Shown here in pieces: positions 5,337 through 61,049 of a DNA stretch of 64,000 nt. This DNA is from an uncultured Candidatus Saccharibacteria bacterium. GTDB taxonomy: Bacteria; Patescibacteriota; Saccharimonadia; Saccharimonadales; CAYUUR01. The notes beneath the pieces were generated by a model. That model had not been told where the DNA came from and did no database searches. It was given only the letters and a program-made list of their open reading frames with translations. The stretch covers positions 5,610 through 69,609 of the forward strand of contig CAYUUR010000003.1 in assembly GCA_964448075.1 (NCBI GenBank), written 5' to 3'. Each line of letters begins with the position of its first letter. Position 1 is the stretch's first letter. The position numbers and the translations under genes were made by a program.

Positions 5337-5378
5337 TTCTTCACTTCTGTTGTCAAAAATGTTATAGTGACCTCTGTT

Positions 5379-6821: not shown

Positions 6822-6858
6822 GCGTTAGTTGTAATATCGCCAGAACATGGTTATATCG

Positions 6859-6887
6859 TTGACATTTTTAACTATTTATGCTTAAAT
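6859..6887 (+). promoter_or_regulatory. Sigma70-type promoter
   Basis: TTGACA (6859-6864), 17-nt spacer, TTAAAT (6882-6887). GAAAGGAAG SD lies before ATG 6932. Confidence 0.5.
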
Positions 6888-6931
6888 GTGTGGGTAAAAT
6901 TCATTATTGATTCGAAAGGAAGAATCGCGCG

Positions 6932-13186: not shown

Positions 13187-13402
13187 ATGATACAAGTTAC
13201 ACGAAAAGACGGCAAAGAATCCACTGAAAACATGCTTCGACGCTTTAACCGTAAGGTGCAGCAGTCTGGTGTTATCAGTGCAGCAAAGGCAAACCAGTTC
13301 TTTGAGAAACAGATGAGCAAGCGTGATCGACGTGAGAAGGCAATCATCCGTAAAGCACGCAAGGCTGAGAAGATGAAAAAGATCAAGCTCGGCATTCGCT
13401 AA
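13187..13402 (+). CDS. rpsU: 30S ribosomal protein S21
   Basis: 71 aa and basic. MIQVTRKDGKESTENMLRRFNRKVQQSG... is the typical S21 N-terminus. Confidence 0.85.
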   Translation: MIQVTRKDGKESTENMLRRFNRKVQQSGVISAAKANQFFEKQMSKRDRREKAIIRKARKAEKMKKIKLGIR

Positions 13403-26503: not shown

Positions 26504-29500
26504 ATGGACGGAAAAAACACGTCGAATCCTTACGGTCCTACCTCTGTAATTGAGCCGAACAATATCGGTACGGTTCAAGACGTGCCGATACAGCCGCCGT
26601 CCCCAAGTGCTACCGAAATGTATACACAACCTGTTGTGAACGCGACGATTTCTGACGCTAAACTACCTCTTAATTCTCAAGTTGAGCAAATATCTTCCTC
26701 TTATGAATCGCTTGATGGTAGCCCAGAAGTCACTACATCTCTGGTGTCTGCACCGACAGTGCGTGGTAACCCTGCGCCGCTGACTGAATCCACTCCGTCG
26801 GGTGACGCTAGTCGGGCAAAGCCACCTGTCTTTCGCGACAAAGACACCAACAAGCTTTTATTCCGCCTGATCGCAGGAGCATCAGTCGTATTCTTTGTGT
26901 TATTTGGCGCCGGACTGATATCGAGTCGGTTATCTGATAATCGGCCGGTTGACCCAGTTGCCCAGTTAGAGGAGCAAGAGATCAGCGGTTTAACAGATCA
27001 GCAGTCTACGTTGGGTGTGCAAACCAGTGGGTCTACTTTGTTGGTCAACGGTAATGTCTTAGCGACTGACTCTCTGCAAGTCAGCTCGGATGGGGTTATT
27101 GGGTCGATTGTTTTGACCGAAGGGGCAGGCTCGCAGACTTACACGTTGCCGAACAGTTCCGGGGTATTTTGTCTTGATATTAACAACTGTAACTATCTGC
27201 AGGCTGATGACGTTACGACGACCAGTGTTGCAGGCGTAGATGGTGCTCTTTCGTTGGGTGCGGGGCTGACAATTAACGGTACAGAGATATCGAGTACCAT
27301 TACACAAACGATTCAGACGAGCGTGAATGGATCGGTAGGATCGATCGTCATACAGGGGACAACCAACCAGGTAGGCGTTTCCAGGGATGGCAACACTATC
27401 ACGCTTACATCACCCCAAGACATTGGCCTAGAAAGCTCGCCGACTTTCAGCAGCATTACACTCTCTGGTATTGGAACTCAGAACGGTAACGTACTCTGCG
27501 ATATCTCTAACAACTGTGGATACGCTGGCGGTACAGGAGCATACATTCAGGATGGGAATTCGTTTGGGGTAGCGGCAGTGCTTGGCACTAACGACAATTT
27601 CTCGCTCGCTTTTGAAACAAACGGAGTAACTCAAGCCACACTGGCTGTTGGTGGCGCATTTACTTTACAGAATAGTGTTGATTCGACGAGTGGATTCCGG
27701 GTCATGGATGCAGACGGCGGCAATCCAGTTCTGAATGTTGACACATCGAACGAGAGAGTTGGAATTGGTACGGCAGCACCGTCAGTTGAGCTCGACGTGG
27801 CAGGAGATACGGTTATATCAAATCGCTTACAAGTAGGGCCGACGGGCAACAGTATTGACCAGTGTACGACGGTGTTCTTTGGTGCAATAGGTTGCGACGT
27901 GGCAATTGATGTGGCAAATACAGCAACAGATCCAAATTTGGCTGTTTACGGAATATATAACAACACTACCATTAGTCCCACTGGTGCAAATATCGCTACT
28001 AATTACGGTTCTTCGAGTAACCTTCTCTTGAATGGGACGAATAATTTCACCGCAAGCAACATTGGGGTTAGCGGTGCGGCCGTGGTAGCAAGCACCGCCG
28101 GGACGGTCTCTCGCATTATCGGTGTGGATGCAACTGCTGCCATACTCACTACTACCAGTACCGCAACAGTTACCGATGCCATAGGTATGCAGACGGGAGT
28201 TGGGGTGTTTAGTACGGTAAGCGGTGGCACAATCACTACCGGTTATGGCTTGCAGGTTGCCTCTGCTTCAGTGTCTGGTGCTGGGGCGAGTATAGGCACA
28301 AACTACGGTATTTACGTGAACCCGCAAACTGCTGGTACAACAGACTATGGGGTGGCGATAGGTGCTGCAGATACGCAAACCCTTTGGTTGTCATCCAATG
28401 CCGATAATACTTCTGCATCAGCGGGCATTGCCTTTGGCTCGTCACGAGATACAAACCTCTATCGTTCTGCTGCCAATACTTTGAGGACAGATGATGCCTT
28501 AAGTGTCGGTGATGACATTACGGTAACTGGTGATATTCTGCCAAGTGCCGATGACACCTATGATCTTGGCTCAAACAGCAATCGCTGGCGTGATCTGTAT
28601 CTTGGCCCGGCTACGCTATCTATCGGTACCAGCGCAACGGATTATAAGATTAGTTATGATACTGGCAACAACGCGCTGCTCTTCAATAACGACCAAGATG
28701 ACCGCGATTTCCGGATTGCCGGTGATACTCAAGCCAATCTCCTCTATGTAGACGCTGGTAACAATCGCATTGGTATCGGCACAAGTACGCCAGGCTACGA
28801 ACTTGATGTCGTTGGCACCATCAACGCATCTACTGGAATTAACGTGAATGGAACGCAAGTTTGTACGGCATCTGGCTGTATAGCCGCACCCGGGTCGGGA
28901 AACTATATCCAGAACGGCACCTCTATCCAAACCAACACCAACTTTGCTATTCAATCAGCCGCCACCGGTTCAGTCGGCGCTGTCATCCGTGGTGCTTCTG
29001 GCCAAACAGCTGCGCTGCAGGAATGGCAGAACAGTAGCGGTACGGTTTTGGCCAGTGTTCTCGCGAACGGCACGGTTGCTCTCGGAACCACTAATGTCGG
29101 GGCACTGCTTAATCTAAGAAGTGCCACTACCCCAACCGGTACCCCGACGGAAGCGGCCGCAACTATTAGGTTGAACACTGTCTACACTGATCTGGGAAGC
29201 GGCAATAACTCGACTGGGGCAATTGAGTTCGGTAACAACACAGTGCGTATCTGGAGAAGCGATAACAATCTGCGTGTCTCTGCTTATGACGGGGTTACTA
29301 TTGATACAAATGCAAGCAGCCTGGCCGCAGTTTCTCTCAAGGTGAAGGCGGTTGCATCACAGAGTGGAGACCTCCAGCAGTGGCAGAACAGTAGCGGTAC
29401 GCGGCTTACATCTATAGAATCGACAGGTAGCTTGTATTCACCAACTGCACCGATCAAGCTTGGTTTCAATGTTGCACTTCAGGGCGAGCATAGTAGTGGC

Positions 29501-32500
29501 GGTGGTTTTGTCGATCTAATTAAACGTGGTGGCGGTAACTCAGTGGTTGTCGGGAACGGCACAGCTGATACAACAGTTAATGCGGTAACTTATTTAGATC
29601 TAGTAGTTGGTGGCGCTAACGGAGTAAGGTTGGGTAGCTATAATGTCAATAAATACGGCGCCATTGGTTATCTCGGCTCATCAAGCGCATTCTGGAACGC
29701 TCTCTGGCTACAACCGGTGAATGCCACTAGCGTAGCCGGAACGATACGGGCACAAGCATCGCAGTCCGCAAACCTGATGGAGTGGCAGAGTAGTGCTGGG
29801 ACTGTACTGACCGCAGTGGATGCGTCGGGTAACCTGCTCTTTGACTCGGGCAAGGGAATCTCTACAACGGCAGCCGATGGTAACTTATATATTGGCCAGT
29901 CAAGCCGAGCGGGCGGGACGGGCGGCAAAAACCGGTACTATGGCTCGGCATATTATGGCGGCTATGCTCATGAATTCTTTGGCGGTAGTGCTTCCAACAT
30001 GACGGGGGTGATGCTGGTTACTTCATCGCAGGCTTCAAAGATAGGTTTAACTGTCAAAGGTGCGGCCAGTCAGACAGGTAATCTGCAAGAGTGGCAGGAT
30101 AGTAGCGGTACGGTTCTCGCATACCTAAGTGCGAGCGGCAACCTAGCGATTAATCACACAGGCAACAACTACCTTACTATCAACTCTACAAACTCAGGTT
30201 CTGCTAACTTGCAATTAGGCACAGCAGGCACCGGGCCGCTCTTGCTATATGACCCGGTAGATACATCTTTGCAGTTCCAGATGAGCGGAGCGACACGAAT
30301 GCAGCTGACGCAAGCAGGTGTTCTGAAGCTGAACAACACGGGGCTAGACGATCGTTTGGAGTTTGTGAACAGCGGTATAAGTGCGGCTAATATAATTTGG
30401 GGGTCTGGTAGTACAACAGGTTACAGACTCGGCAAAGATGCGAGTGGTTACTTCCGGCTGGCTAATTCAAGCCTTGTTTCTACTCGGAATCTCTCTTTTA
30501 ACGGAGCAGATGGTCTGTTTGGTATCAACACGCAGTATCCAACAACAGCCGCCCTTGAAATCAATGTGCCATCGGCAGCTAACCTTGGTCTTATTGTCCG
30601 TGGGGCAGCCAGCCAAACTGCGAGCCTTCAAGAATGGCAGAACTCATCCGGCACAACCCTACTACGAGTAAACCAAAACGGAACGATCCAAAACATTACC
30701 GGTAATGCGAATGCGTTTCTATCAAGCACGACGCTTGGGCTTGCTGGCGGCGGCGGGATACAGGTGCAGAGTGGCAGTGACTTGAATCTGACCACGAGTG
30801 GTGTCGGGCAAATCGTGCTAACTACTGGGGGCTCAGCAAGATTCCGGGTTACAGATGGTGGAGTGGCTATGGTTGGGTCTTCTGGCACGGCCGGAACCGT
30901 AGAAAAATTCCGCGTTAATACACCAACAACAGTCGATAACTTAGCGGCCACAATACTTAGTACGGGCGCAACGACTTCAAAGGGTCTGGTTGTGCAAGGC
31001 GCTGCCTCCCAGACTGCCAACCTCCAAGAGTGGCAGGATAGCAGCGGTACCATTCTTACGAGGGTTAATGCTGATGGAAGTATTGCCCTTGGTGGTGTAA
31101 ATACAGCAAGCACAGGAGCCTTACGGCTTGCCAACAATACGTACATATACGCGAGAAATGCGGCAAACACTGGCAATAAGCAATTGCTAGGATATGATTC
31201 TGCTGACAATGTCGTACTCGGCGGGAGTGGAACGAGCGTTAATGTGTATATTATGAACGCTATAGGCAGTGGTATTGGTGTTTCAACAACCGCGATATCC
31301 TCTGGGCCTGGCAAAGGGATATATCAGACAGGCTCAGCCTTAGGCCTTTATCATTACAATGGTAATATTACCTTGACGCCTGGGGCTAGCTCAAGCTTTG
31401 CTAGTGTTTTGACTGCAGCACGCAGCGGTACGAATATCACCGTACAGACTGCGGCTACAACTGATATTGGCCTTGTGGTAAAGGGGACCGCGTCACAAAC
31501 GGCCAACCTCCAGGAATGGCAGGATAGCACCGGGTCCGTACTTGCGAGCGTTGGCGCGACGGGCAACATATCAATCACAAATGCCGATACTCCAGGGACT
31601 AGGATAATGCTCAATCAAACGAACCCGAATTTCCAGGCCTATTTACAAACCAATTATACTGGAAATAGCCAAGGATACCGTATCGGTCAGTCAAATAGTA
31701 CTGGACCAGAATTCTTCGTGCAGAGCACGCAAAGTAACAACTACTTTATCCGGGGTGGCTATAATAACATGGCAGTTGTGATTGGACCATCAGCTGATCA
31801 GAGGGCGGCAATAAGTGACTATGGCTCAAACAGCGCCGCGACGCTTATCGTTCAAGATTCAAGGGCATCCGTCGGTGCGACCAGGCTTGTTGTTCGTGCC
31901 GGAGCTGGGCAATCCACAACAAACCTCCAAGAGTGGCAGAACTCGGCTGGTACAGTCCTTACAAGCATTAGTGCAAACGGGATACTGAATGTATCAAGTT
32001 CAGCAAGTGGTACTGAGCATGATTTGGGTGTGAATCAAGGGGTAAGAATTGGTACCTTTGCAAGATTTGGCAGCGGGAGCGGTGGTGCTAGTGCTGGCGC
32101 CATCAGACTATTCAATAACACGTTTGTGAACTGGCGCAACGCGGCCAACTCTGCAGATATCGGTATTCGGGTAGATACGAACAATACCTTACAGCTTGGT
32201 GCGGCTGCGACGACACTCGATACCGTGGCGGATACGACTATTGGTACCAGTGGCACGACCCGCAAAGGTCTGGTTATTCAAGGCGTCGCTTCACAAACTG
32301 CCAGTCTTCAAGAGTGGCAAAGCTCAACCGGTACAGTGCTGGCAAGCATTGCAGCCGATGGCGACCTAGAGGTGGTTGACGCTACCGTGAACGGCAATCT
32401 CGTGGTTGATGGCACGGCGACATTTAACGGCAACATCACCGTCAATGGACACGTGATTACGGGGAATACGAGCGGCTCTACTACAGTTACAGTCAATACC

Positions 32501-32788
32501 ACAGGTGCGGGTACTGGTGCGTCAGCAAGTATCAGCGGTAATGATACGGCAGGTGTAATCACGATAAATACGGGTACTGGGGCGGCTGCCGGCACGCTGG
32601 CCACCGTTACCTTCGCCAATGCATTTGGTAGCGCACCAGAGGTCATCATTACACCGAAGTCGATCCCAGGTGGTGGCACATTCCCACAGTATCATTTTGA
32701 TAGCGCTACGACGACGTTTGATCTAAAGGCATTCAACGCGCTCACTGACAGCTCAACCTACACCTTCACGTACATGATCGTCGAGTAG
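26504..32788 (+). CDS. Giant (2094 aa) membrane-anchored, tail-fibre-like repeat protein; putative surface fibre or adhesin
   Basis: Single uninterrupted ORF. It opens with a P/S/T-rich N-terminus and one TM helix (26855-26926). A G/S/T/N/A-rich extracellular region of more than 1900 aa follows. That region carries C-x5-C loops, N-x-R-[VI]-G-I-G-T...LDV-x-G motifs, nine LQEWQ motifs and a distinct C-terminal domain. Confidence 0.85.
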   Translation: MDGKNTSNPYGPTSVIEPNNIGTVQDVPIQPPSPSATEMYTQPVVNATISDAKLPLNSQVEQISSSYESLDGSPEVTTSLVSAPTVRGNPAPLTESTPSGDASRAKPPVFRDKDTNKLLFRLIAGASVVFFVLFGAGLISSRLSDNRPVDPVAQLEEQEISGLTDQQSTLGVQTSGSTLLVNGNVLATDSLQVSSDGVIGSIVLTEGAGSQTYTLPNSSGVFCLDINNCNYLQADDVTTTSVAGVDGALSLGAGLTINGTEISSTITQTIQTSVNGSVGSIVIQGTTNQVGVSRDGNTITLTSPQDIGLESSPTFSSITLSGIGTQNGNVLCDISNNCGYAGGTGAYIQDGNSFGVAAVLGTNDNFSLAFETNGVTQATLAVGGAFTLQNSVDSTSGFRVMDADGGNPVLNVDTSNERVGIGTAAPSVELDVAGDTVISNRLQVGPTGNSIDQCTTVFFGAIGCDVAIDVANTATDPNLAVYGIYNNTTISPTGANIATNYGSSSNLLLNGTNNFTASNIGVSGAAVVASTAGTVSRIIGVDATAAILTTTSTATVTDAIGMQTGVGVFSTVSGGTITTGYGLQVASASVSGAGASIGTNYGIYVNPQTAGTTDYGVAIGAADTQTLWLSSNADNTSASAGIAFGSSRDTNLYRSAANTLRTDDALSVGDDITVTGDILPSADDTYDLGSNSNRWRDLYLGPATLSIGTSATDYKISYDTGNNALLFNNDQDDRDFRIAGDTQANLLYVDAGNNRIGIGTSTPGYELDVVGTINASTGINVNGTQVCTASGCIAAPGSGNYIQNGTSIQTNTNFAIQSAATGSVGAVIRGASGQTAALQEWQNSSGTVLASVLANGTVALGTTNVGALLNLRSATTPTGTPTEAAATIRLNTVYTDLGSGNNSTGAIEFGNNTVRIWRSDNNLRVSAYDGVTIDTNASSLAAVSLKVKAVASQSGDLQQWQNSSGTRLTSIESTGSLYSPTAPIKLGFNVALQGEHSSGGGFVDLIKRGGGNSVVVGNGTADTTVNAVTYLDLVVGGANGVRLGSYNVNKYGAIGYLGSSSAFWNALWLQPVNATSVAGTIRAQASQSANLMEWQSSAGTVLTAVDASGNLLFDSGKGISTTAADGNLYIGQSSRAGGTGGKNRYYGSAYYGGYAHEFFGGSASNMTGVMLVTSSQASKIGLTVKGAASQTGNLQEWQDSSGTVLAYLSASGNLAINHTGNNYLTINSTNSGSANLQLGTAGTGPLLLYDPVDTSLQFQMSGATRMQLTQAGVLKLNNTGLDDRLEFVNSGISAANIIWGSGSTTGYRLGKDASGYFRLANSSLVSTRNLSFNGADGLFGINTQYPTTAALEINVPSAANLGLIVRGAASQTASLQEWQNSSGTTLLRVNQNGTIQNITGNANAFLSSTTLGLAGGGGIQVQSGSDLNLTTSGVGQIVLTTGGSARFRVTDGGVAMVGSSGTAGTVEKFRVNTPTTVDNLAATILSTGATTSKGLVVQGAASQTANLQEWQDSSGTILTRVNADGSIALGGVNTASTGALRLANNTYIYARNAANTGNKQLLGYDSADNVVLGGSGTSVNVYIMNAIGSGIGVSTTAISSGPGKGIYQTGSALGLYHYNGNITLTPGASSSFASVLTAARSGTNITVQTAATTDIGLVVKGTASQTANLQEWQDSTGSVLASVGATGNISITNADTPGTRIMLNQTNPNFQAYLQTNYTGNSQGYRIGQSNSTGPEFFVQSTQSNNYFIRGGYNNMAVVIGPSADQRAAISDYGSNSAATLIVQDSRASVGATRLVVRAGAGQSTTNLQEWQNSAGTVLTSISANGILNVSSSASGTEHDLGVNQGVRIGTFARFGSGSGGASAGAIRLFNNTFVNWRNAANSADIGIRVDTNNTLQLGAAATTLDTVADTTIGTSGTTRKGLVIQGVASQTASLQEWQSSTGTVLASIAADGDLEVVDATVNGNLVVDGTATFNGNITVNGHVITGNTSGSTTVTVNTTGAGTGASASISGNDTAGVITINTGTGAAAGTLATVTFANAFGSAPEVIITPKSIPGGGTFPQYHFDSATTTFDLKAFNALTDSSTYTFTYMIVE
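28982..32374 (+). repeat. Nine dispersed in-frame copies of a ~33-35 aa conserved motif (consensus v-[vi]-[rkq]-G-a-A-S-Q-T-A-n-L-Q-E-W-Q-[nd]-S-s-G-T-v-L-a-s-v-x-a-x-G)
   Basis: Copies lie at 28982-29086, 29336-29437, 29741-29842, 30050-30151, 30593-30691, 30989-31093, 31475-31576, 31889-31993 and 32273-32374. Start-to-start spacing is irregular: 103 to 181 aa. Confidence 0.9.
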
Positions 32789-35249: not shown

Positions 35250-36962
35250 ATGTATAATTTCAAAACCGTAAAAAAGCAGCCCTCTGGTAAGGCGGTCGAT
35301 GGTATTATTCGTCCCGCACGACAGCCCCGTACTACTGATACAGGTGGCCAGTTTAGGCGTGTAAAGTCATATCGGCCGGAACCTGCACCGCCGCGTGCAC
35401 GCAAAACACCAATTGGTGACTTTCGTCAGCCAACTGCACGCTCCATCACAGACCGTGCCCGACCACTAAGCGTGAGTGGATCCACGGTGGCACTTGAGCA
35501 GCCCTGGGACAAGAGAACAATGAATAACGATAACGAAAAACCAAACAAAAAAACTGGCAAACGCCGTTTATGGCCATTTGGCAAGGGAAAAGACAAGACA
35601 AAGAAAAAACCCCGGACCAAAAAGCAAAAGATACGACGGGCATTGCTGATATTCCTGCTCCTGGGAATTGTGGCCGGCGGTTATATGTTCGGCAAAACAT
35701 ATTGGAATGCACGTAAGGTTCTCTCTGGAGGTGGTGGTTCACCTGCACTGCAGCAAGACTGTGAAGATTTGTCTCAGCTCAAGGTTGAAGGTGATTGCCG
35801 CGTCAATATTATGATTCTCGGTAAGGGTGGCGGGTCACACGAGGCGCCTGATCTGACAGATACGATTATTATTGCTAGTATCGACCCAATCCATAAGGAA
35901 GCAGCCTTAGTGAGTATTCCTCGCGATCTTTATGTACAAGCTGACGGCGGCTATGGTTACACTAAGATCAACGCCGTCTATGCAAATGCCAAGAGCGCTT
36001 CGTTTGCGCAGAGTAACAGATCTAACGCTGCAAAGAAACGTGCTGATCAGGCCGGACTCGTAGCAATCGAGAAAACTCTCGAAAATAAACTCGGCATACC
36101 GATCCATTACTACGGCATGATTGACTTCGAAGGCTTCAGGCGTGCTATCGATACAGTAGGCGGGATTACTATCGATGTAAAAGAACCATTGATTGATCCA
36201 TCGGTTGCTTGGGAAAACAACTGGAATGCAACAATTGCCACAAAGGGTGTCCAGAAGTTTGATGGTAAGAAAGCACTCCTCTACGCCCGATCTCGTCAGA
36301 GCAGCCCACGTGGTGACTTTGATCGCTCGCAGCGCCAGCGTGAAGTGATTGTTGCATTGAAGGACAAGATATTCTCTGCTGGCACGTACAGCAACCCTGT
36401 AAAGGTATCTCAGCTTATCGACACCTTTGGCAATCGGGTTAGTACTAACTTTAGTATCGATGAGATTATGAAGCTCTACGGTATTGGCAAAGATATGCCG
36501 AGTACGAGCATTAAGTCGATTGGACTGTCCGATCCGCCAAATGATTATCTGACGACCGACACCTACAATGGCCAATCAGTAGTTGTACCAAAAGCTGGAC
36601 TGGATAATTACGATGGCATCCGCAAATACATCCGTAAGGTTTTGGTAGATCCGCGTATTCGTCAAGAGAATGCACAGGTTGTCGTGCTCAATGGCACATC
36701 GACTGCAGGATTGGCCACTAAGAAGGCGGCAGTACTCAAATCCTTTGGCTATAACGTTGGTGAAGTCAAAGATGCACCAACCAAAGATTACCAAAAGACA
36801 GTCATTGTAGACTTACGCAGCGGAAACAAGAAATACACCAAACATTACCTTGAGCGACGCTTTGGTGTGAGCGTGACCGACAAGCTTCCTTCCGGCATCG
36901 TTGCCCCAGAAACAGCAGACTTTGTTATAATACTGGGACAGAATGAAACAAGTACTCAGTAA
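35250..36962 (+). CDS. LytR-CpsA-Psr (LCP) family cell-envelope phosphotransferase
   Basis: Basic N-terminus, one TM, LCP core (NIMILGKGG...DLTDTIIIASIDP...LVSIPRDLYV...NAVYA), C-terminal LytR_C-like domain. Confidence 0.8.
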   Translation: MYNFKTVKKQPSGKAVDGIIRPARQPRTTDTGGQFRRVKSYRPEPAPPRARKTPIGDFRQPTARSITDRARPLSVSGSTVALEQPWDKRTMNNDNEKPNKKTGKRRLWPFGKGKDKTKKKPRTKKQKIRRALLIFLLLGIVAGGYMFGKTYWNARKVLSGGGGSPALQQDCEDLSQLKVEGDCRVNIMILGKGGGSHEAPDLTDTIIIASIDPIHKEAALVSIPRDLYVQADGGYGYTKINAVYANAKSASFAQSNRSNAAKKRADQAGLVAIEKTLENKLGIPIHYYGMIDFEGFRRAIDTVGGITIDVKEPLIDPSVAWENNWNATIATKGVQKFDGKKALLYARSRQSSPRGDFDRSQRQREVIVALKDKIFSAGTYSNPVKVSQLIDTFGNRVSTNFSIDEIMKLYGIGKDMPSTSIKSIGLSDPPNDYLTTDTYNGQSVVVPKAGLDNYDGIRKYIRKVLVDPRIRQENAQVVVLNGTSTAGLATKKAAVLKSFGYNVGEVKDAPTKDYQKTVIVDLRSGNKKYTKHYLERRFGVSVTDKLPSGIVAPETADFVIILGQNETSTQ

Positions 36963-37692
36963 ACTCAAACCAAAGAAGGGTGTTGCCCACGTTCTCCATA
37001 TTGGCTTCAATGTGCTATTGCCAGCATTGCTGTATATTTTTGTACGGATTGAGCTTGTACCGATCGCCCTGGCGCTCGTAATTGTCAGTAAGTGGCGCAT
37101 GTTTGCCGTCAAACCTCGCCATTGGCCTGCTAATATTCGCGCTAACGGTGTTGACCTGATGGTCGGGCTGTCAATCGTGATATTTATGTCAAATAGTGGC
37201 ACACAGCTCTGGCAAGTAATTTGGACGTTGCTGTACTTGCTATGGTTACTATTTGTTAAGCCACGTTCTGATGTGATATCAGTATCGCTGCAAGCACTGA
37301 TTGGTCAATTTGCTGGCCTAACGGCGTTGTTTTTGGCATTTGGTGAAGCGGCCACCTTTTGGCTTGTACTTGGAGCTTGGGCGGTTACATATGCTGCAGC
37401 ACGGCACTTTATGACGAGTTTTGACGAACCAATGACACGTTTGTTTTCGCATATTTGGGCGTACTTTGCGGCTTCGCTGACTTGGGTGTTGGCTCATTGG
37501 CTGTTGTTTTATGGTCCGATTGCGCAACCCACCTTGCTGCTTTCCATCATCGGCTTTAGTTTGGCGACGTTGTACTACCTTGATGAGACAGATAAGCTTT
37601 CGGTGTTTTACCGGCGACAGATCCTATTCATTATGCTGACAATTGTCACCATTGTGATCTTACTGGCCGATTGGCAAGATAAAACCAGTTAA
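36943..37692 (+). CDS. Hypothetical polytopic membrane protein
   Basis: About 7 hydrophobic helices. Overlaps the LCP gene end by 20 nt. I recognise no motif. Confidence 0.5.
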   Translation: MKQVLSKLKPKKGVAHVLHIGFNVLLPALLYIFVRIELVPIALALVIVSKWRMFAVKPRHWPANIRANGVDLMVGLSIVIFMSNSGTQLWQVIWTLLYLLWLLFVKPRSDVISVSLQALIGQFAGLTALFLAFGEAATFWLVLGAWAVTYAAARHFMTSFDEPMTRLFSHIWAYFAASLTWVLAHWLLFYGPIAQPTLLLSIIGFSLATLYYLDETDKLSVFYRRQILFIMLTIVTIVILLADWQDKTS

Positions 37693-51630: not shown

Positions 51631-51998
51631 TGCAGGTGCCGACTGACGAAGAGTTCGATGCGTTGATATCCAGAGCACTCGATAGCTTGCCTGATAAATA
51701 CACGTCGCGGCTTAAGAATGTGCTAATTACGTATGAGGACGAGCCAAGTATGGAGCAGCGCACACGGCTCAAACTGCACTGTAACCAAACTTTGTTTGGA
51801 CTGTACGAAGGCGTACCTCTACCAGCTCGCAACGGCATTGAGCCGCTTCTGCCAGATAGAATCACGATTTTTAAAGTTCCGATGGCGCACGCTACGAACA
51901 CGCCAGAAGAACTCTATGCGCAAGTTCGCCACACGCTGTGGCACGAGATGGCGCACTACTTTGGCCTCGACCACAAGCGTATCCATGAGTTAGAGTAA
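51627..51998 (+). CDS. Small zinc metallopeptidase-family protein (HExxH, COG3824-like)
   Basis: HEMAHYFG near the C-terminus. 4-nt overlap with lysS. Confidence 0.6.
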   Translation: MMQVPTDEEFDALISRALDSLPDKYTSRLKNVLITYEDEPSMEQRTRLKLHCNQTLFGLYEGVPLPARNGIEPLLPDRITIFKVPMAHATNTPEELYAQVRHTLWHEMAHYFGLDHKRIHELE

Positions 51999-52020
51999 GA
52001 GTACAAAAGGAAGGTTTTTC

Positions 52021-52323
52021 ATGAAAGCAGTCTGGAATGATCAAGTAATTGCCGAGGCAGACAAAGACGATTTGATTTATATTGAAGGGAACTGGTACTT
52101 TCCCCCGGACAAAGTAAAGTCTGAGTTTTTAGAAAATAGTCCAACACCGTATACCTGCCCATGGAAAGGCGACTGCCAGTACTTTAACGTAGTGCAAGGT
52201 GACAAAAAGAGTGAAGACGTGGCTTGGAGCTACCCTGAGCCAAAGGCGTCCGCTATCGACACTGTCAAAAAAGATTTCTCTAACTATGTCGCGTTCTACC
52301 GCGACGTCCAAGTAACGGAGTAA
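52021..52323 (+). CDS. DUF427-like small protein
   Basis: VWNDQVIAEADKDDLIYIEGNWYFP...CPWKGDCQYFNV is the pattern I associate with DUF427. Confidence 0.55.
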   Translation: MKAVWNDQVIAEADKDDLIYIEGNWYFPPDKVKSEFLENSPTPYTCPWKGDCQYFNVVQGDKKSEDVAWSYPEPKASAIDTVKKDFSNYVAFYRDVQVTE

Positions 52324-52325
52324 GT

Positions 52326-52805
52326 ATGCATCAGGCGATATTTGCTGCCGGTTGCTTCTGGGGAGTGCAGTATTATTTTGACCAAGTGCCGGGCGTCAAG
52401 AAGACTTCTGTGGGCTACACAGGCGGCAAGACCAAGAACCCAACGTATGAGCAAGTCAGTTACGAAGCAACTGGTCACGCAGAGGCGGTGTTGGTAGAGT
52501 TTGAGCCGAAAGAAGTCAACTATGAAACATTGGTCCGGCAATTCTTTCGCATGCACGACCCAACGCAGCTCAATCGCCAAGGCCCAGATGTGGGTGATCA
52601 GTATCGTTCAGCAATCTTTACCATGGATGACACGCAAACGGCGATTGCTGAAAATGTCCGCGACGAACTGCAGGAATCATCTGATCAGCCTATTGCGACC
52701 ATAATTGAGCGAGCTGGCGAATTCTACGCAGCCGAAGCCTGCCATCAAAAATACACACAACGCACCGGCCGCGGCATGTGCCACATTCCGTTTAAAGCGA
52801 TCTAG
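52326..52805 (+). CDS. msrA: Peptide methionine sulfoxide reductase MsrA
   Basis: Catalytic GCFWG motif at the N-terminus; HAEAV; DPTQLNRQG. Confidence 0.9.
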   Translation: MHQAIFAAGCFWGVQYYFDQVPGVKKTSVGYTGGKTKNPTYEQVSYEATGHAEAVLVEFEPKEVNYETLVRQFFRMHDPTQLNRQGPDVGDQYRSAIFTMDDTQTAIAENVRDELQESSDQPIATIIERAGEFYAAEACHQKYTQRTGRGMCHIPFKAI

Positions 52806-52866
52806 TTGTTGGCAGTAAATTTACATGTTATAATATATCTAAGTAATTGAGTAAAGAGGATATTCT

Positions 52867-53322
52867 GTGGCAGAAGTAATGTACCCTGACGTGCGCGATA
52901 TAGATTTCGATGTAGATACCAGTCCGTTGAGTACTGAACGTAAGTTGGCTATCCTGTCTGTTGCTGCTTGTGCAGTAGGTGCGATCGGTTTGAGCTATTT
53001 TTTGCCACAGATTGATATCGAAATGCAATATTACCGCAGTATGGACGCTACGGAATACATTAATGCAGATGGTTTTGTGATTCAGCGCGATGCCATTAAG
53101 CAGCTAGATGTGTCTACTCAAAGCGTCAAGTTCGACGCGGCGATATCAAGAGCATGTGAAGTTCCAATAACGGCTGAGCTGACTATGGATAGTGAAGATC
53201 GGGTCCGTGATGTCTCGGGCTATACAATTGATGGTTACGGGATGGAAGGCATTGTTTACTTTGATGAACAGCCAGAACTAGCTGCGTACGTTGCTATTCA
53301 TCAGCAAGATATCTGTAACTGA
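52867..53322 (+). CDS. Hypothetical single-pass membrane protein
   Basis: AAAGAGGA lies before GTG 52867. TM helix LAILSVAACAVGAIGLSYFL followed by a ~100-aa acidic domain. Confidence 0.45.
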   Translation: MAEVMYPDVRDIDFDVDTSPLSTERKLAILSVAACAVGAIGLSYFLPQIDIEMQYYRSMDATEYINADGFVIQRDAIKQLDVSTQSVKFDAAISRACEVPITAELTMDSEDRVRDVSGYTIDGYGMEGIVYFDEQPELAAYVAIHQQDICN

Positions 53323-53370
53323 GCCCAATAAATCCTTCGGGTGCAGAGCAGCTTGTGCTAAAGTGAGCAC

Positions 53371-54192
53371 ATGGTAAAAACAACTAAATCTTCAAAAAAT
53401 TCTCCCGCAAAATCAAAAATAACTCTAGAAAACCTGCACAAATGGAACATCTGGATGGCAGTCTTGCACTTTGTCCAGGGAGTTGCTGTACTCATTCTCA
53501 GTACTTCAGCAACCCTACCAGTTATCACGAACTATCTGTCACTCGATACATTGGCTAGTGAGGCGTCCGGTCAGCCAGTCTTGGCATTGGCGCAACGGAC
53601 AGTCTTCAATATCAATCTTGCATACCTCGTGGTAGCATTCTTCTTTATGTCAGCTATTGCACATGCTTTGATTGCAACGGTATATCGTGCACGTTATGAG
53701 GCAAACCTAAAGCAAGGTATCAACAAGGCCCGTTGGATTGAGTATTCACTAAGTGCCAGCACCATGATGGTGGCCATAGCATTGCTGAGTGGCGTGTATG
53801 ATCTCTCGAGCTTGATTATGATCTTTGCGTTGGATGCCATCATGAACCTGATGGGTCTAGCAATGGAAGTGACCAACCAGGGCAAAAAGAAGCCAAGCTG
53901 GCTAACATATTGGATAGGCTGCCTGGCGGGAATTATCCCATGGGTTGTATTTGGTATTTACGTCTGGGGCGCCAGTGTATACGGCGCGGGCAACATCCCG
54001 ACTTTTGTTTACTGGATCTACGCAAGCATCTTTGTCTTCTTCAACAGCTTTGCCATCAATATGTACTTGCAGTACAAGAAAACCGGCAAGTGGTCAGACT
54101 ACCTGTACGGCGAAAAGGTGTATATGATTTTGAGCTTAGTTGCTAAGTCGGCGCTCGCGTGGCAAGTTTTTGCTGGCACGCTTCGCCCGTAA
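53371..54192 (+). CDS. Heliorhodopsin
   Basis: Seven hydrophobic helices. The ORF carries family-signature stretches as I recall them from prototype 48C12. These are RWIEYSLSAS (counterion Glu), IGCLAGIIPWV, FFNSFAINMYLQYKKTGKWSDYLYGEKVYMILSLVAKSALAWQVFAGTL (Schiff-base Lys at 54145-54147), and His residues in VLHFVQ and IAHALI. Confidence 0.85.
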   Translation: MVKTTKSSKNSPAKSKITLENLHKWNIWMAVLHFVQGVAVLILSTSATLPVITNYLSLDTLASEASGQPVLALAQRTVFNINLAYLVVAFFFMSAIAHALIATVYRARYEANLKQGINKARWIEYSLSASTMMVAIALLSGVYDLSSLIMIFALDAIMNLMGLAMEVTNQGKKKPSWLTYWIGCLAGIIPWVVFGIYVWGASVYGAGNIPTFVYWIYASIFVFFNSFAINMYLQYKKTGKWSDYLYGEKVYMILSLVAKSALAWQVFAGTLRP

Positions 54193-54204
54193 ATGTAGCA
54201 AGAC

Positions 54205-55668
54205 ATGAGAAGGATTACGCTTTCGACCAGGGTACTAGAAGTAGGCGTCTTTGCTGTACTTCTCGGTCTTCTGTTAATCAAGTACGTGCTAATCGTGCAC
54301 ATTACCAGTAGCCCAGACGAACTACTGCGTACATACAAATTTGTATACACCGATAGTTTTGATTGGTTTGCAAATGGCTTACGGCTTTTTGATAACCCAA
54401 GCGTTACCATGCGTAACCCTGGGCTTCCATTGGTGATTAGGCTTTTGTCTGAAGCGGGTGCTATATATCTCTTGCCGCTACTCAACCAAATGGCATTTCT
54501 CAGTATGGTGATAGCGATCTATTATAGCCTTAAAGTCTTAACAAAACATACTCTGGTTTCAATGGGCACTGCATTGCTGGTGTTCGCGAACTTTACCTGG
54601 GCTACTTTTGCTAACTACCTCATGGCAGATATTTATGCAATCACTGCGTTCTCGTGGGCTATATACTTTACACTTACCAAACGCTATAAGGCATCCTTTG
54701 CATTACTCGGCGTTTCGATGCTATTTCAAAACTTCGGGTACTTACTCTATCCATTTTGGGTAGCGTGGTATTTGCTTCAACAGCGCACAGAATTGAAACT
54801 ATGCTTCAAAGACAGTCCACTAAATCATTACAAAAGATACTTCAATCTATTCCTCCCAATCATATTGCCGGTCATAATTATTCTGCCTTGGCATGTCTAT
54901 AAATGGGTGAATTTTGCAAACCCACTATATACAAAGATTGATCAAATGGCCTTGTTGCGGTTTCAAACGAAGTTGCTCTCATATTATTCGCATGTTGCAC
55001 TCAGGACGCTCGGCGTACTACTGGTACTCACGCTAATACTTGTTGTCTATGCCGTCGTCAAGCGGCGGTTTGTGCTTAATGATAGGTCGCTTCTATTTGT
55101 GATGATTGGCTTCCTATTATCTGCCGGATTCTGGTTTACATTCTATGACTGGCCAGACGTAAGGTTCATGCTATACGTTACGCCGTGGTTCTACTTGCTG
55201 GCAGGCTATCTAATCTTTGTCACGCTCGGAAAGGTACGCCCACTACTACTTGTCTGTATTTTTGGAGTGCTTTTTTATCACGCATCGCTTCCGAGTACAG
55301 CAAAGGTAACAACGAAACAACTACCGTTAATAGATGATTACTACGTTGCATATCGGGACTACGGAAGTATGTTGCATGCAAAGATTGCACGCAATAAAGA
55401 CTACCGATACCCAACTATGAATATCTCTCCAATACTATACGATGCATATAAAAAACGCGCATATTATCGCTCTGAATACGGCGGAAAATATACTAATGCT
55501 GTGGCATATATTGATGCTAACTATGATTTTTCTCGACAATGCTTTAGAGTGTTAGCAGGCGAAACATACACCATTAACGCAGTGTTACAAATCCGCTATA
55601 ATAGCGACATTGATAGGCATGCAAAAGTATGCAAACAGAATACGACAGGAGACTATGAAAACGACTGA
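54205..55668 (+). CDS. Polytopic membrane protein, probable GT-C-fold glycosyltransferase (ArnT/PMT/YfhO-like)
   Basis: About 11-12 TM helices. An Asp-containing first loop (YTDSFDWFANG) and a C-terminal soluble ~110 aa. The call rests on topology plus genomic context. Confidence 0.4.
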   Translation: MRRITLSTRVLEVGVFAVLLGLLLIKYVLIVHITSSPDELLRTYKFVYTDSFDWFANGLRLFDNPSVTMRNPGLPLVIRLLSEAGAIYLLPLLNQMAFLSMVIAIYYSLKVLTKHTLVSMGTALLVFANFTWATFANYLMADIYAITAFSWAIYFTLTKRYKASFALLGVSMLFQNFGYLLYPFWVAWYLLQQRTELKLCFKDSPLNHYKRYFNLFLPIILPVIIILPWHVYKWVNFANPLYTKIDQMALLRFQTKLLSYYSHVALRTLGVLLVLTLILVVYAVVKRRFVLNDRSLLFVMIGFLLSAGFWFTFYDWPDVRFMLYVTPWFYLLAGYLIFVTLGKVRPLLLVCIFGVLFYHASLPSTAKVTTKQLPLIDDYYVAYRDYGSMLHAKIARNKDYRYPTMNISPILYDAYKKRAYYRSEYGGKYTNAVAYIDANYDFSRQCFRVLAGETYTINAVLQIRYNSDIDRHAKVCKQNTTGDYEND

Positions 55669-56377
55669 AAAAGTGCGTCATTACGAAGGTGCTGACCTTG
55701 AATCTATGGCTGAAGCCAAAAACTACTACCAGTGGATGACAGAGGAATTCAAGCCGTTTATAAAGGGAACGGTCGTCGAAGTCGGAGCTGGCGTGGGCAC
55801 GTTTACAGAGCATCTTGCTGACTTAAAGCCAAAACAGCTCTATGCCTTTGAGCCAACAGAAGAAATGGGCCCCAAACTCGCCCAAAACATGAAGCGTCGC
55901 AAGAACGTTGTAGTTGTACAGGATTACCTCAAGTCACAGCTCAAGCAGCTGAAGGGCAAAGCTGACGTGGTGATTTATATAAACGTTCTAGAGCACGTCG
56001 AACGTGATGCTGAAGAGTTAAAGACGGTGTTTGAAGTCCTCAAACCAGGCGGTTCGCTGCTCATCTACGTGCCGGCGCTACAGGGTTTGTATGGTAGTTT
56101 TGACGAGCAAGTGGGCCATTATCGCCGTTATAGTAAACAAGAAATGCGTGACAAGCTGGAGGCAGCTGGCTTTAATGTAAAGCAGCTGTATTATTCAGAC
56201 ATTTACGGCATGCTGCCGTGGTTTGTTAACTTTAGAATACTGAAACAGCGCCGTTTGAATCAAACGTCTATCCGAATCTATGATCGCTTTGCAATTCCTG
56301 TAATCAGATTCCAAGAAAAGCTATTCAAGCCGCCAGTTGGTAAAAACCTCTGGGCTATTGCTAAAAAGCCAAAGTAA
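55655..56377 (+). CDS. Class I SAM-dependent methyltransferase
   Basis: Motif I VVEVGAGVGTF. CAGGAG lies before ATG 55655, which overlaps the upstream gene by 14 nt. Confidence 0.75.
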   Translation: MKTTEKVRHYEGADLESMAEAKNYYQWMTEEFKPFIKGTVVEVGAGVGTFTEHLADLKPKQLYAFEPTEEMGPKLAQNMKRRKNVVVVQDYLKSQLKQLKGKADVVIYINVLEHVERDAEELKTVFEVLKPGGSLLIYVPALQGLYGSFDEQVGHYRRYSKQEMRDKLEAAGFNVKQLYYSDIYGMLPWFVNFRILKQRRLNQTSIRIYDRFAIPVIRFQEKLFKPPVGKNLWAIAKKPK

Positions 56378-56378
56378 A

Positions 56379-57128
56379 TTACTTAGCAAGCAAGTTGTAG
56401 TAGAAGATTTCCCTGAGTGCTTTTGCGCCGTCACGGAAGGCATGCATTTTTTTGCCTTCTTCGAGTGTGCGGGCGTGGTAGCTGATTGGCACAATGCCAA
56501 ATTTCAAACGCCGGCCATCTAGCTTGTAGCGTGAAAGTCGTGCCGTTATCTCTGGTTCGAGTCCAAAACTGCTTGTTGCAGTTATCTTTGCGGCAATTTC
56601 ACGGGCGACATCACCACGAATCATCTTATAACAAACTTCCATGTCAGGGATTTTGACGCGGATGCGCGGGTACGTGAAAAGGTTTGATGTGCATGATAGG
56701 AACCGATTCCCAAAATAGTTTTGCCAATATATGACTTTGTTCTTTTCGCCAAAACGGTTACCGTACACAACATCGAGCTTCATTGACTCCATGAGTTTAA
56801 GAAGGCGAAGGATCTCTTGGGGGTCGTATTCAAAGTCAGCGTCCTGGATGACCACAATATCACCAGTTGATTGCAGCAGACCGTTGCGAACAGTTTGTGA
56901 TTTACCGGAGTTCTGCTTGTTGTTAAGCAGGCTTACGTTTTTGTACTGCTTGCTGAGTTTGCTTGCAATTGTTTTGGTTTTGTCGGCAGAACCGTCGTTA
57001 ACGATGATTATCTCTGTAGAAATGTGACTCGGAAACTTCACTGCCAGAACACGGCCGATGAGTTCCGCCAGAGTTTTTTCCTCGTTATAGGCAGGTACGA
57101 TGATTGATAAAGTTTTGTTTTTTGCCAT
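56379..57128 (-). CDS. GT2-family polyprenyl-phosphate glycosyltransferase (GtrB/DPM1-like)
   Basis: LSIIVPAYNEE, NDGSADKT, DxD in IQDADFEYDP. Soluble GT-A of 249 aa. Confidence 0.8.
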   Translation of the reverse strand: MAKNKTLSIIVPAYNEEKTLAELIGRVLAVKFPSHISTEIIIVNDGSADKTKTIASKLSKQYKNVSLLNNKQNSGKSQTVRNGLLQSTGDIVVIQDADFEYDPQEILRLLKLMESMKLDVVYGNRFGEKNKVIYWQNYFGNRFLSCTSNLFTYPRIRVKIPDMEVCYKMIRGDVAREIAAKITATSSFGLEPEITARLSRYKLDGRRLKFGIVPISYHARTLEEGKKMHAFRDGAKALREIFYYNLLAK

Positions 57129-57129
57129 G

Positions 57130-57573
57130 CTAGACTCCTTCGGGTGATGATTTGTGAAAAATTAGAAAACGCATACATAGGTAACTACTGACCATTTGCA
57201 CGGCAGCCACGATAATCTTTGAAACCGGAATTGGCGCGTGCGAATTATTGACAAGGAAGTTAAATACAAGCGTGTTATAGACCACAAGGTTAAAGCCCTG
57301 CAATGCAACGAACGACACGAACTGGCGCTTACGGCGGTGACTATCAGTAATCTGGAACGTCCAGCGTTTCTGTAGAATAAAGGCATAGACTACTGCCGTA
57401 ACTGTCGAAATAACATTGGCCACGAGAATATTACCAAAGAGCATAACGCGAAAATCGCAGACATAGACGAGGAAGTTGAGGATGCCAAAGTCAATAAAAA
57501 ATGCTGACAGACCAACAAAAGCAAAGCGCATCGGCTGAAAGTTAAGTCGTAACGTCGCGGTAGTTATTTTCAT
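57130..57573 (-). CDS. GtrA-family membrane protein (putative lipid-linked sugar flippase)
   Basis: Four TM helices and RFAFVGLSAFFIDFGILN N-terminus. There is a 1-nt gap to the GT2 gene. ATG 57573 is preferred over 57609. Confidence 0.7.
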   Translation of the reverse strand: MKITTATLRLNFQPMRFAFVGLSAFFIDFGILNFLVYVCDFRVMLFGNILVANVISTVTAVVYAFILQKRWTFQITDSHRRKRQFVSFVALQGFNLVVYNTLVFNFLVNNSHAPIPVSKIIVAAVQMVSSYLCMRFLIFHKSSPEGV

Positions 57574-57685
57574 GCAATGTGTGTTTATGTGTGCGCAGCA
57601 GCGCAGCAAACAGTACTCTCGTTAGTTTGTATTAGTTCCTACATATACTACCAGATTCTGTAGTTATTGCGTACACTGACTATAG

Positions 57686-59580: not shown

Positions 59581-60269
59581 GATTGCATCGCTTTTACGTG
59601 GGGCCAGAGCAAGAGCTCGATCATTACATCTGGCTCAAAGACGAGCGGATATTATATCAATGGCAAAAGGTACTGCGATACCGAGCTGGCCAGCAGGTTA
59701 TTTTGTTTGACGGCGTCATTCACGATCGCCTGTATGTGATTACAGAAATCAAAAAAGACGCGGCGCACCTAGAACTAATCACTGACTTTGAACGTAAACT
59801 GCCTGCTAAAAATGTCTATCTGCTATGGGCGCTACTCAAAAAAGACAAGAATGACTGGGTGCTGCAGAAATGTACCGAGCTCGGTGTTAGTCACTTTGTT
59901 CCAGTCCTGGCTGAACGCTCTGAAAAAACCGGCTTTAACCTTGAACGTGCCCAGAAAATTGTGATAGAAGCCGCCGAACAGTGTGGTCGCAGCGATATCC
60001 CTAAAGTGCGCGAACCTGTGCTGTTGCCAGCCGCAGTGCATCAATATGCCCAAAAAGTTCCGTTGTTTATGTGTGAGCAAGAATCATTGGGTAAGAAGAA
60101 GCAGCCAAACTACGCTGATGTAGGCGTGCTCATAGGTCCCGAAGGTGGCTGGTCAGATAATGAGAAGCAACTTTTCCTGAGCGCCGAACTACCGCGTTTA
60201 TCCCTCGGCGACTTCACCCTCCGTGCTGAAACAGCTGCAGTCGCAGCAAGCACAAAGCTGCTACAATAG
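59577..60269 (+). CDS. rsmE: 16S rRNA (uracil1498-N3)-methyltransferase RsmE
   Basis: MRLHRFYV start; SPOUT C-terminus IGPEGGWS. Confidence 0.85.
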   Translation: MRLHRFYVGPEQELDHYIWLKDERILYQWQKVLRYRAGQQVILFDGVIHDRLYVITEIKKDAAHLELITDFERKLPAKNVYLLWALLKKDKNDWVLQKCTELGVSHFVPVLAERSEKTGFNLERAQKIVIEAAEQCGRSDIPKVREPVLLPAAVHQYAQKVPLFMCEQESLGKKKQPNYADVGVLIGPEGGWSDNEKQLFLSAELPRLSLGDFTLRAETAAVAASTKLLQ

Positions 60270-60275
60270 GAGCAC

Positions 60276-61049
60276 ATGAATTATTGGAGGGAACGGAGCC
60301 AGCCGTATCAACCTGGTCAAACTACGCCGTTTAAGGTGTCACGCAGCAAGATAGAGCTGTTCGTGCAGTGCCCGCGCTGTTTTTGGCTAGACACGCGCCT
60401 CAAGATAACTCGGCCCAACACACCGCCATTCAACATCAATAAGACTATCGATGAACTCTATAAAAAAGAATTCGATGCGCATCGTGAAGCCGGCACGCCA
60501 CACCCAATCATGACAGATAATCAGATAAAAGCTGTGCCAATGCAGCACGAAAACATGGAAACCTGGCGCCATAACTTTACGGGCATCGTGACGATTCACA
60601 AACCAACCAACCTCCACGTCTTTGGGGCGATTGATGATTTGTGGGTGGGTGACGATGGCAAAGCGATTGTGGTAGATTACAAAGCAACCTCTAAAGACAA
60701 AGAAGTCTCCATCGACTCTGATTGGCAGATGAGCTACAAGCGCCAGCTAGAAGTCTACCAATGGTTGCTCCGCCAGAACGGTCTTGATGTCAGTGACACC
60801 GGATACTTTGTCTATACTAACGCCCGGATTGACTTAGATGGTTTTAACGATCGACTCGAATTCAAAACCAAACTGATTCCATACACGGGCAGTGACGCTT
60901 GGGTCGAGCCGACGCTTCAAAAAATGAAAGACTGTATGGAAGGCGACATGCCGCCTGTCGGCCAAGCAGCCATGGGTGGCGACTGTGATTATTGTACCTA
61001 TGCTCGCAAACGCACCGAACTCACGCTAAAACATCTCAAGAAAAACTAG
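60276..61049 (+). CDS. PD-(D/E)XK nuclease-family protein with Cas4/AddB-like Cys motifs
   Basis: GAIDDLWV...VVDYKAT core and RQLEVYQWLL. CPRC lies near the N-terminus and CDYC near the C-terminus. Confidence 0.6.
   Translation: MNYWRERSQPYQPGQTTPFKVSRSKIELFVQCPRCFWLDTRLKITRPNTPPFNINKTIDELYKKEFDAHREAGTPHPIMTDNQIKAVPMQHENMETWRHNFTGIVTIHKPTNLHVFGAIDDLWVGDDGKAIVVDYKATSKDKEVSIDSDWQMSYKRQLEVYQWLLRQNGLDVSDTGYFVYTNARIDLDGFNDRLEFKTKLIPYTGSDAWVEPTLQKMKDCMEGDMPPVGQAAMGGDCDYCTYARKRTELTLKHLKKN

Follow-up and report, generated by a model that had tools for sequence, protein, structure and literature searches.

A stretch of 64,000 nucleotides from an uncultured Candidatus Saccharibacteria bacterium (contig CAYUUR010000003.1, positions 5,610 to 69,609; hereafter the window) carries at 53371..54192 (+) an open reading frame (ORF) which is a genuine, intact and canonical prokaryotic heliorhodopsin gene of the Saccharibacteria, members of the candidate phyla radiation (CPR/Patescibacteria). 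Its product is referred to here as HeR. We consider it highly probable that this canonical heliorhodopsin is a non-pumping light sensor which scavenges its retinal, and that it is made from a leaderless mRNA transcribed from an extended -10 promoter.

The gene was pointed out by a first-pass annotation based on the letters of the DNA, which described a 273-aa ORF containing the motifs RWIEYSLS, IGCLAGIIPWV and SLVAKSALAWQ. The frame is open throughout (273 aa plus stop), and the three motifs were recovered where they had been placed, at residues 121–128 (nt 53731–53754), 182–192 (nt 53914–53946) and 255–265 (nt 54133–54165). The family, which the annotation had named from these signatures, was established by hidden Markov model (HMM) searches. 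The Pfam heliorhodopsin family PF18761 matches over the full length of the model (positions 1–242 of 242) with E = 4.3e-94 and 314.8 bits against a cut-off of 26.7, and the HeR equivalog NF038020 of NCBIfam gives 315.2 bits against a cut-off of 100, both far above the curated thresholds. Among sequences of known structure, HeR matches the heliorhodopsins TaHeR (6IS6, E = 6e-72), 48C12 (E = 2e-52) and Cv06 of Chromera (9VFC, E = 4e-48). Nothing that we found contradicts the family assignment. The exact protein sequence has no record in public assemblies, where the nearest entries are 97–98% identical, and no phage-borne relatives were detected in IMG/VR.

A structural model was computed with AlphaFold2 on an alignment of 38 relatives and has a predicted local distance difference test (pLDDT) score of 88.4. 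The seven helices announced in the annotation are borne out by the model as long segments at residues 19–43, 83–102, 119–139, 145–168, 178–204, 211–236 and 244–270. The loop between helices A and B folds into the beta-hairpin typical of heliorhodopsins (strands 49–58 and 71–81), and the pLDDT is below 50 at residues 1–12. A Foldseek search with the model returned TaHeR (6IS6) at the top with template modelling (TM) scores of 0.84/0.91, the value of 0.91 being normalised to the target. The 48C12 structures follow with about 0.81/0.86 (target-normalised 0.86–0.88), and type-1 rhodopsins lie far behind (TM 0.5–0.7, identity 11–16%).

Alignment with 48C12 and TaHeR clarified the position of the key residues. 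K259, proposed earlier as the Schiff-base Lys of helix G with the codon 54145–54147, is located in the last helix (244–270) and falls on K241 of 48C12. The Glu of RWIEYSLS, proposed as counterion, is E124 in helix C and falls on E107, while H33 falls on H23. E124, K259, S255, H33, H98, R121, G187, P190 and W191 are invariant across the 38-relative alignment. K259 would thus form the retinal Schiff base, and E124 would act as its counterion. The loops on the side of the N-terminus contain 13 Lys and Arg residues against two on the opposite side, so that by the positive-inside rule the N-terminus is predicted to be cytoplasmic; the inverted topology assumed by the annotation therefore finds support in silico.

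A recent preprint (10.1101/2025.11.27.691015) defines the lateral fenestration and carotenoid site of heliorhodopsins, in 48C12 numbering, by aromatic residues at 162 and 206, small residues at 166 and 210, G169 and N207. According to the alignment, all six defining residues are conserved in HeR (Table 1). Judged by these residues, the lateral opening beside the retinal ring is conserved as in TaHeR.

The closest characterised protein is TaHeR from the Thermoplasmatales archaeon SG8-52-1 (6IS6, 7U55), with 50% identity to HeR over the whole protein. The two have in common the Glu counterion, the Lys in an SxxxK context, the His pair, the A-B hairpin, the fenestration and a Tyr at position 162. 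They differ in their hosts, an archaeon in one case and a CPR bacterium in the other, and HeR has a longer Lys-rich N-terminal tail, small insertions in the A-B loop and five residues around 199–203 after helix E. The founding member of the family, 48C12 from an actinobacterial fosmid (6SU3, 6UH3), is more distant (about 40% identity). Its residues E107, K241, H23 and H80 correspond to E124, K259, H33 and H98 of HeR, the last by visual matching, while D155 replaces N138 and a Tyr replaces the Phe at 162. By analogy with 48C12 and TaHeR, HeR would run through a slow photocycle and pump no ions.

Heliorhodopsins of the Saccharimonadia are much closer, with 64–98% identity to HeR among the 120 database matches listed and 57–97% in 80 genome loci. 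They share with it the SLVAK motif, the syntenic block described below and the promoter architecture. Some of them apparently carry a cytoplasmic N-terminal extension of about 50–70 extra residues rich in Lys, Ala, Ser and Thr (e.g. MATTKKKSTSKKKNSKSSSAKAASKSKKKT...), compared with the tail of 18 residues in the window protein; long extensions of this type were seen in L034, L035, L043, L055, L068, L075, L041 and L056.

The chromophore probably comes from outside the cell. The annotation had noted that crt and blh genes are missing from the window, and our Pfam scans of its approximately 58 ORFs likewise detected no blh/BCD, phytoene synthase, desaturase, lycopene cyclase or protein of the bacteriorhodopsin family. 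Most window ORFs lacking a family were also rescanned permissively (E up to 5), again with no blh, crt or type-1 rhodopsin gene among them. In rhodopsin-bearing Saccharibacteria blh was not found, and the actinobacterial hosts have been proposed as source of retinal (Jaffe 2022, PMC9296517). The same study describes rapid uptake of retinal by heliorhodopsins via a small opening and their use by microorganisms without a retinal pathway. Scavenging is thus supported indirectly, by the lack of synthesis genes in the 64 kb and by these published points. The apoprotein would be loaded with all-trans retinal which the cell does not make; this retinal would be taken from the host or from cells nearby, with the fenestration as its entrance.

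The region in front of the gene points to an unusual mode of expression. The string TGCTAAAGT occurs once in the window, at 53356–53364, and is followed by the six nucleotides GAGCAC and by the ATG at 53371. Relative to the A of the ATG the last T of this box is at -7, so that the -10 hexamer would occupy the canonical positions -12 to -7 if transcription begins at that A. For 81 loci (the window and 80 related ones) we aligned the sequences preceding the gene at the start codon, the starts having been chosen independently of the promoter motif. A TANNNT box with a spacer of exactly 6 nt to the ATG is present in 43 of the 81 loci, 40 times with the TG extension, and spacers of 5–7 nt account for 63 loci. 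Other offsets of TANNNT mostly occur in about 1–9 loci, with secondary peaks at 14 (spacer 7) and 17 (spacer 11). The resulting consensus reads T-15 G-14 n T-12 A-11 t A-9 g T-7 and, after five variable bases, T-1 A+1 TG, where T-1 and A+1 agree with the pyrimidine/purine preference of start sites.

Shine–Dalgarno (SD)-like 4-mers precede the heliorhodopsin gene in just five of the 81 loci, and no SD 4-mer is found within -16 to -4 of the window gene. SD-led genes from the same loci served as controls: an SD-like sequence was found for GreA in 47 of 50 cases and for HPF in 44 of 47, with the box-at-start pattern in 1 of 50 and 0 of 47, respectively. The same pattern precedes the PD-(D/E)XK nuclease in 27 of 31 loci (24 with the TG extension) and LysRS in 17 of 31. 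Because these two genes share the box while GreA and HPF are SD-led, it seems that leaderless initiation is a habit of particular genes, conserved within the Saccharimonadia.

The window and its closest relative, L001, agree in all 22 nt that precede the ATG, and the remainder of the intergenic spacer has diverged beyond recognition. In 19 loci a divergent sortase-like gene begins only about 40–60 nt upstream of the heliorhodopsin gene, which leaves no space for a leader. The HeR mRNA is therefore probably leaderless, as predicted from the position of the promoter. The annotation had come to the same view from the box and the 6 nt that follow it; the fixed distance in 43 of 81 loci now backs it. 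Transcription would start at the A of the ATG via TGcTAAAGT with its 6-nt spacer, and translation would proceed without an SD sequence. No description of leaderless expression in Saccharibacteria or Patescibacteria was encountered in the literature searched. No terminators were found between the 151-aa ORF, the HeR gene and the 487-aa gene in a scan of 52700–55800.

Some further genes of the window have a TANNNT box 6–8 nt before the ATG. Among them is the PD-(D/E)XK nuclease (box region 60262–60278, start 60276), and the same arrangement is seen at the minus-strand starts 12707 (priA) and 10723 (def) as well as at 13187 (small ORF 13187–13402). At 53355–53370 the -10 box is spanned by a 5-bp inverted repeat, GTGCT-aaagtg-AGCAC, which extends up to the start codon. 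L001 carries the repeat unchanged and L002 in an imperfect form, and more distant loci do not have it; it could be an operator or due to chance.

The start codon itself deserves attention, as the nearest database relatives (P0001, P0002 and P0006) are annotated as 245-aa proteins beginning with MAVLHF... at the equivalent of M29. If this start were correct, HeR would begin at 53455 and the box would serve as an ordinary promoter for an mRNA with an 84-nt leader. We regard this as extremely improbable, even though gene callers have chosen the short product for the closest relatives. M29, which is the only alternative ATG, lies inside helix A of the model (19–43), and the alignment with TaHeR begins already at residue 18. 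The 38 relatives show little or no variation at L22, W25 and N26, which precede M29, and in most relatives a long form of 262–300 aa has been called. As judged by eye, no SD-like motif precedes M29. An in-frame stop is located three codons upstream of the ATG at 53371. The 245-aa models are 28 residues short, the N-terminal tail and roughly half of helix A being absent, probably because the gene callers skipped a true start which has no ribosome-binding site.

Table 1. Positions of the HeR gene, its functional elements and its neighbours in the window.
Feature	Position	Strand	Basis and remarks
Heliorhodopsin coding sequence	53371..54192	+	Family HMMs, AlphaFold2 model, Foldseek; transcription predicted to start at ATG 53371
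Extended -10 promoter box TGcTAAAGT	53356..53364	+	Sequence; spacing conserved in orthologous loci
Lys-rich disordered N-terminal tail, predicted cytoplasmic (residues 1–18; 5 Lys, 0 acidic)	53371..53424	+	Charge count
H33 codon (H23 of 48C12/TaHeR), member of the proton-accepting His pair	53467..53469	+	Alignment; invariant (n = 38)
H98 codon, taken as H80 of 48C12	53662..53664	+	Matched by eye, gaps not counted through; invariant (n = 38)
E124 codon, Schiff-base counterion (E107 of 48C12, E108 of TaHeR), helix C 119–139	53740..53742	+	Alignment, model
Fenestration, helix E side: Y180, C184, G187 (48C12 F162, C166, G169)	53908..53931	+	Residue mapping by alignment
Fenestration, helix F side: F224, N225, A228 (48C12 F206, N207, A210)	54040..54054	+	Alignment; F224 and A228 invariant
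SLVAK motif with S255 and Schiff-base Lys K259 (AAG, 54145–54147), helix G	54133..54147	+	Alignment, model
DUF427 (52021–52323) and msrA (52326–52805)	52021..52805	+	Pfam; commonest upstream neighbours of HeR in Saccharimonadia loci
Lineage-specific 151-aa ORF without family match, between msrA and HeR	52867..53322	+	Pfam; homologue only in L001
Four genes between HeR and rumA: 487-aa protein (no family match), methyltransferase, GT2 glycosyltransferase, GtrA	54205..57609		Pfam

The closest database proteins and the 80 genomic loci belong nearly all to metagenome-assembled genomes (MAGs) of Saccharibacteria/Saccharimonadales. L001, from a Patescibacteria MAG, encodes a heliorhodopsin with 97% amino acid identity to HeR. 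Over 18 kb L001 and the window are collinear and 86% identical in nucleotides, a value which marks L001 as a close relative and not the same organism. The CPR minimal-genome context suggested by the annotation agrees with these matches. The genes of the window annotated by Pfam have housekeeping functions only (translation, replication, division, envelope). Seven window ORFs have no family match. One of these comprises 2094 aa (26504–32788) and was without a Pfam match up to E = 0.001; for the ORFs 5367–6821 (484 aa), 6932–8665 (577 aa), 25609–26409 (266 aa) and 36943–37692 (249 aa) no significant family match was obtained at E up to 5. Scans of the entire 64-kb window for tRNAs and with Rfam gave no matches. 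An LCP (LytR_cpsA_psr) protein in the window and the sortase-like neighbour, recognised by eye, in related loci would be consistent with a Gram-positive-type envelope. Heliorhodopsins are reported to be absent from diderms.

A block of genes around HeR is conserved across the Saccharimonadia: GreA, ferredoxin, LysRS, Zincin_1, DUF427, MsrA, HeR, RumA, HAD, RsmE, PD-(D/E)XK nuclease, SerRS and HPF. The lineage formed by the window and L001 differs from other Saccharimonadia by the 151-aa ORF upstream and by an insertion of four genes downstream of HeR, where elsewhere rumA follows directly. The inserted genes have a slightly lower GC content and, from the GT2 and GtrA matches, look like a surface-glycosylation set of the GtrABC type. 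L001 in turn has about 2 kb between Zincin_1 and DUF427 (6653–8643) which are missing from the window (51997–52021). The HeR gene has a GC content of 46% and a third-position GC content (GC3) of 55%, in line with the values of neighbouring genes, which speaks against its horizontal acquisition. Compared with its L001 orthologue it shows 102 synonymous and nine non-synonymous codon differences, and the ratio of non-synonymous to synonymous substitution rates (dN/dS) of 0.016 led us to reject a pseudogene or relic. By these sequence measures the gene is functional, native and under strong purifying selection.

As to its output, HeR would be a light sensor or regulator which acts on a partner in the cytoplasm or membrane and alters its activity. 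AbHeR, TfHeR and OcHeR belong to the same family, and their light-dependent binding of glutamine synthetase, photolyase and the OmrDE ABC transporter, respectively, is by analogy also the likely mode of HeR. The operons of these three heliorhodopsins also encode the partner, whereas no partner class is adjacent to HeR, which has a predicted promoter of its own. Saccharibacteria also possess the SacR rhodopsins, type-1 DTS proton pumps which resemble HeR in phylum, sunlit freshwater niche and use of external retinal without blh (PMC9296517). They differ from it by their Pfam family (bac_rhodopsin), an N-terminus outside the cell, a DxxxK motif and outward proton pumping, and none is encoded in the window.

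Several points weigh against the picture of a retinal-scavenging sensor with a leaderless mRNA. Retinal binding, absence of transport, slow photocycle and signalling are extrapolated from characterised homologues. None of the ten frequent neighbour classes of heliorhodopsins (glutamine synthetase, photolyase, ABC multidrug transporter, MerR, TerC and others; PMC11109279) is adjacent to HeR, whose neighbours are instead msrA, DUF427, the 151-aa ORF, the 487-aa protein, the methyltransferase, GT2 and GtrA. Further, a consensus promoter scan (52700–55800) did not call the HeR promoter, which we attribute to a weak -35 region. The locus itself does not point to a partner of HeR, and the leading published guess at its role is protection from light-linked oxidative damage.

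The neighbourhood of msrA invites a more specific explanation, namely that HeR and msrA, possibly with DUF427, form a light and oxidative-stress module in which illuminated HeR binds and stimulates the methionine sulfoxide reductase, in analogy to the pairs that other heliorhodopsins form with glutamine synthetase and photolyase. An msrA gene lies within 3 kb upstream in 37 of the 80 loci, on the same strand except in one, and DUF427 in 26. Unbiased clustering also returned msrA as the commonest upstream neighbour (38 of 81 sequences, the window included; DUF427 30 of 81), and two msrA forms with about 60% and 38% identity to the window copy occupy the same slot. An oxidative-stress role of CPR heliorhodopsins has been proposed (PMC9166423), and other heliorhodopsins regulate neighbouring enzymes directly (PMC9529153, PMC9769723, PMC11109279). 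The linkage, however, does not exceed that of unrelated downstream genes (PD-(D/E)XK nuclease in 49 loci, RsmE in 35, RumA in 30). Intervening genes are common, such as the 151-aa ORF in the window and the divergent sortase-like gene in 19 loci, and HeR has a predicted promoter of its own. Heliorhodopsin loci of CPR groups outside the Saccharimonadia (WWE3, Dojkabacteria, Berkelbacteria) have no msrA nearby, the ten frequent neighbour classes do not include msrA, and the literature searched contains no link between msrA and heliorhodopsins. A functional linkage was thus rejected as a firm claim. Since the association is no stronger than with unrelated genes, interrupted, limited to the Saccharimonadia and unreported in that literature, the adjacency is best read as synteny of the lineage. 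A small chance of function is left, which would agree with the published oxidative-stress hypothesis, and we regard the module as unlikely. A fuller version, in which HeR is the light input activating repair by msrA, and perhaps DUF427, with a constitutive leaderless promoter, host retinal and possibly a xanthophyll antenna, appears slightly less probable still.

Other explanations concern what HeR does with light. It might transport ions, either driven or gated by light, as in the viral V2HeR3, and help to energise the membrane of a fermentative cell, an option that we consider very improbable. HeR is nearest to TaHeR and 48C12, which to our knowledge do not transport ions, and this counts against it. 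So does the complete fenestration motif, as the mostly viral subfamily in which several members transport ions falls wholly into the group lacking the motif (10.1101/2025.11.27.691015). In its favour, one proton-transporting heliorhodopsin exists (PMC9448325), CPR cells have few routes to a proton gradient, and type-1 rhodopsins of Saccharibacteria do pump protons (PMC9296517). Alternatively, the outward-facing fenestration may recruit a xanthophyll from the host or the environment as antenna, so that HeR would harvest light with two chromophores, as has been proposed for heliorhodopsins generally. All six motif positions required are present (Y180/F224, C184/A228, G187 and N225), and an epibiont on carotenoid-producing Actinobacteria could obtain such pigments (PMC9296517). 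The proposal rests on docking and sequence statistics of the preprint, which cites no carotenoid-bound structure or measurement of energy transfer, and it accounts for light capture but not for output. We take it to be rather unlikely for HeR, although it is compatible with a retinal-scavenging sensor and does not exclude it.

Two observations on neighbouring genes may be added. The MsrA encoded between DUF427 and HeR occurs either in the window-like form (AAGCFWGVQ..., about 60% identity) or as a 176-aa form (GGGCFWC..., about 38%). The slot covers -1260 to -730 relative to the HeR start in L003, L004, L010, L013, L029 and others, and 52326–52805 in the window. The 176-aa form is usually followed by the divergent gene for a 222–226-aa sortase-like protein (by eye), which abuts the HeR promoter. 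Outside the Saccharimonadia, loci of WWE3 and Dojkabacteria encode homologous proteins of 167 aa (MKK..VND..Q.GYVY.LTE...) which adjoin the heliorhodopsin stop codon in opposite orientations (L040 784–1287, minus strand; L073 780–1286, plus strand) and could be lineage-specific partner candidates.

The occurrence of heliorhodopsins in this group is not new. A screen of 1326 CPR genomes (Chiriac 2022, PMC9166423) counted 80 heliorhodopsins among the Saccharimonadia, gave SLVAK as the commonest motif of CPR heliorhodopsins, discussed a role in oxidative stress and found type-1 rhodopsins and heliorhodopsins in the same MAGs. Retinal scavenging by Saccharibacteria rhodopsins was treated by Jaffe 2022 (PMC9296517), and relatives of HeR are already named ‘heliorhodopsin HeR’ [Candidatus Saccharibacteria bacterium] at NCBI. 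With occurrence, SLVAK and scavenging published in these studies, the main points were already known and HeR does not represent a new kind of biology. What the present analysis adds, both modest, are the conserved leaderless-type promoter and the truncated 245-aa start calls. The latter matter when genes are synthesised for expression, since database entries may lack 28 residues.

The physiological role of heliorhodopsins is only partly resolved. Genomes of this lineage are well under 1 Mb (related contigs reach 480–780 kb) and therefore offer very few candidate partners for HeR, so that a cultivable HeR-bearing Saccharibacterium would be a convenient system. Should the module of HeR and msrA prove true, heliorhodopsin would gain a defined output in the physiology of a cell whose small genome allows partners to be searched for exhaustively.

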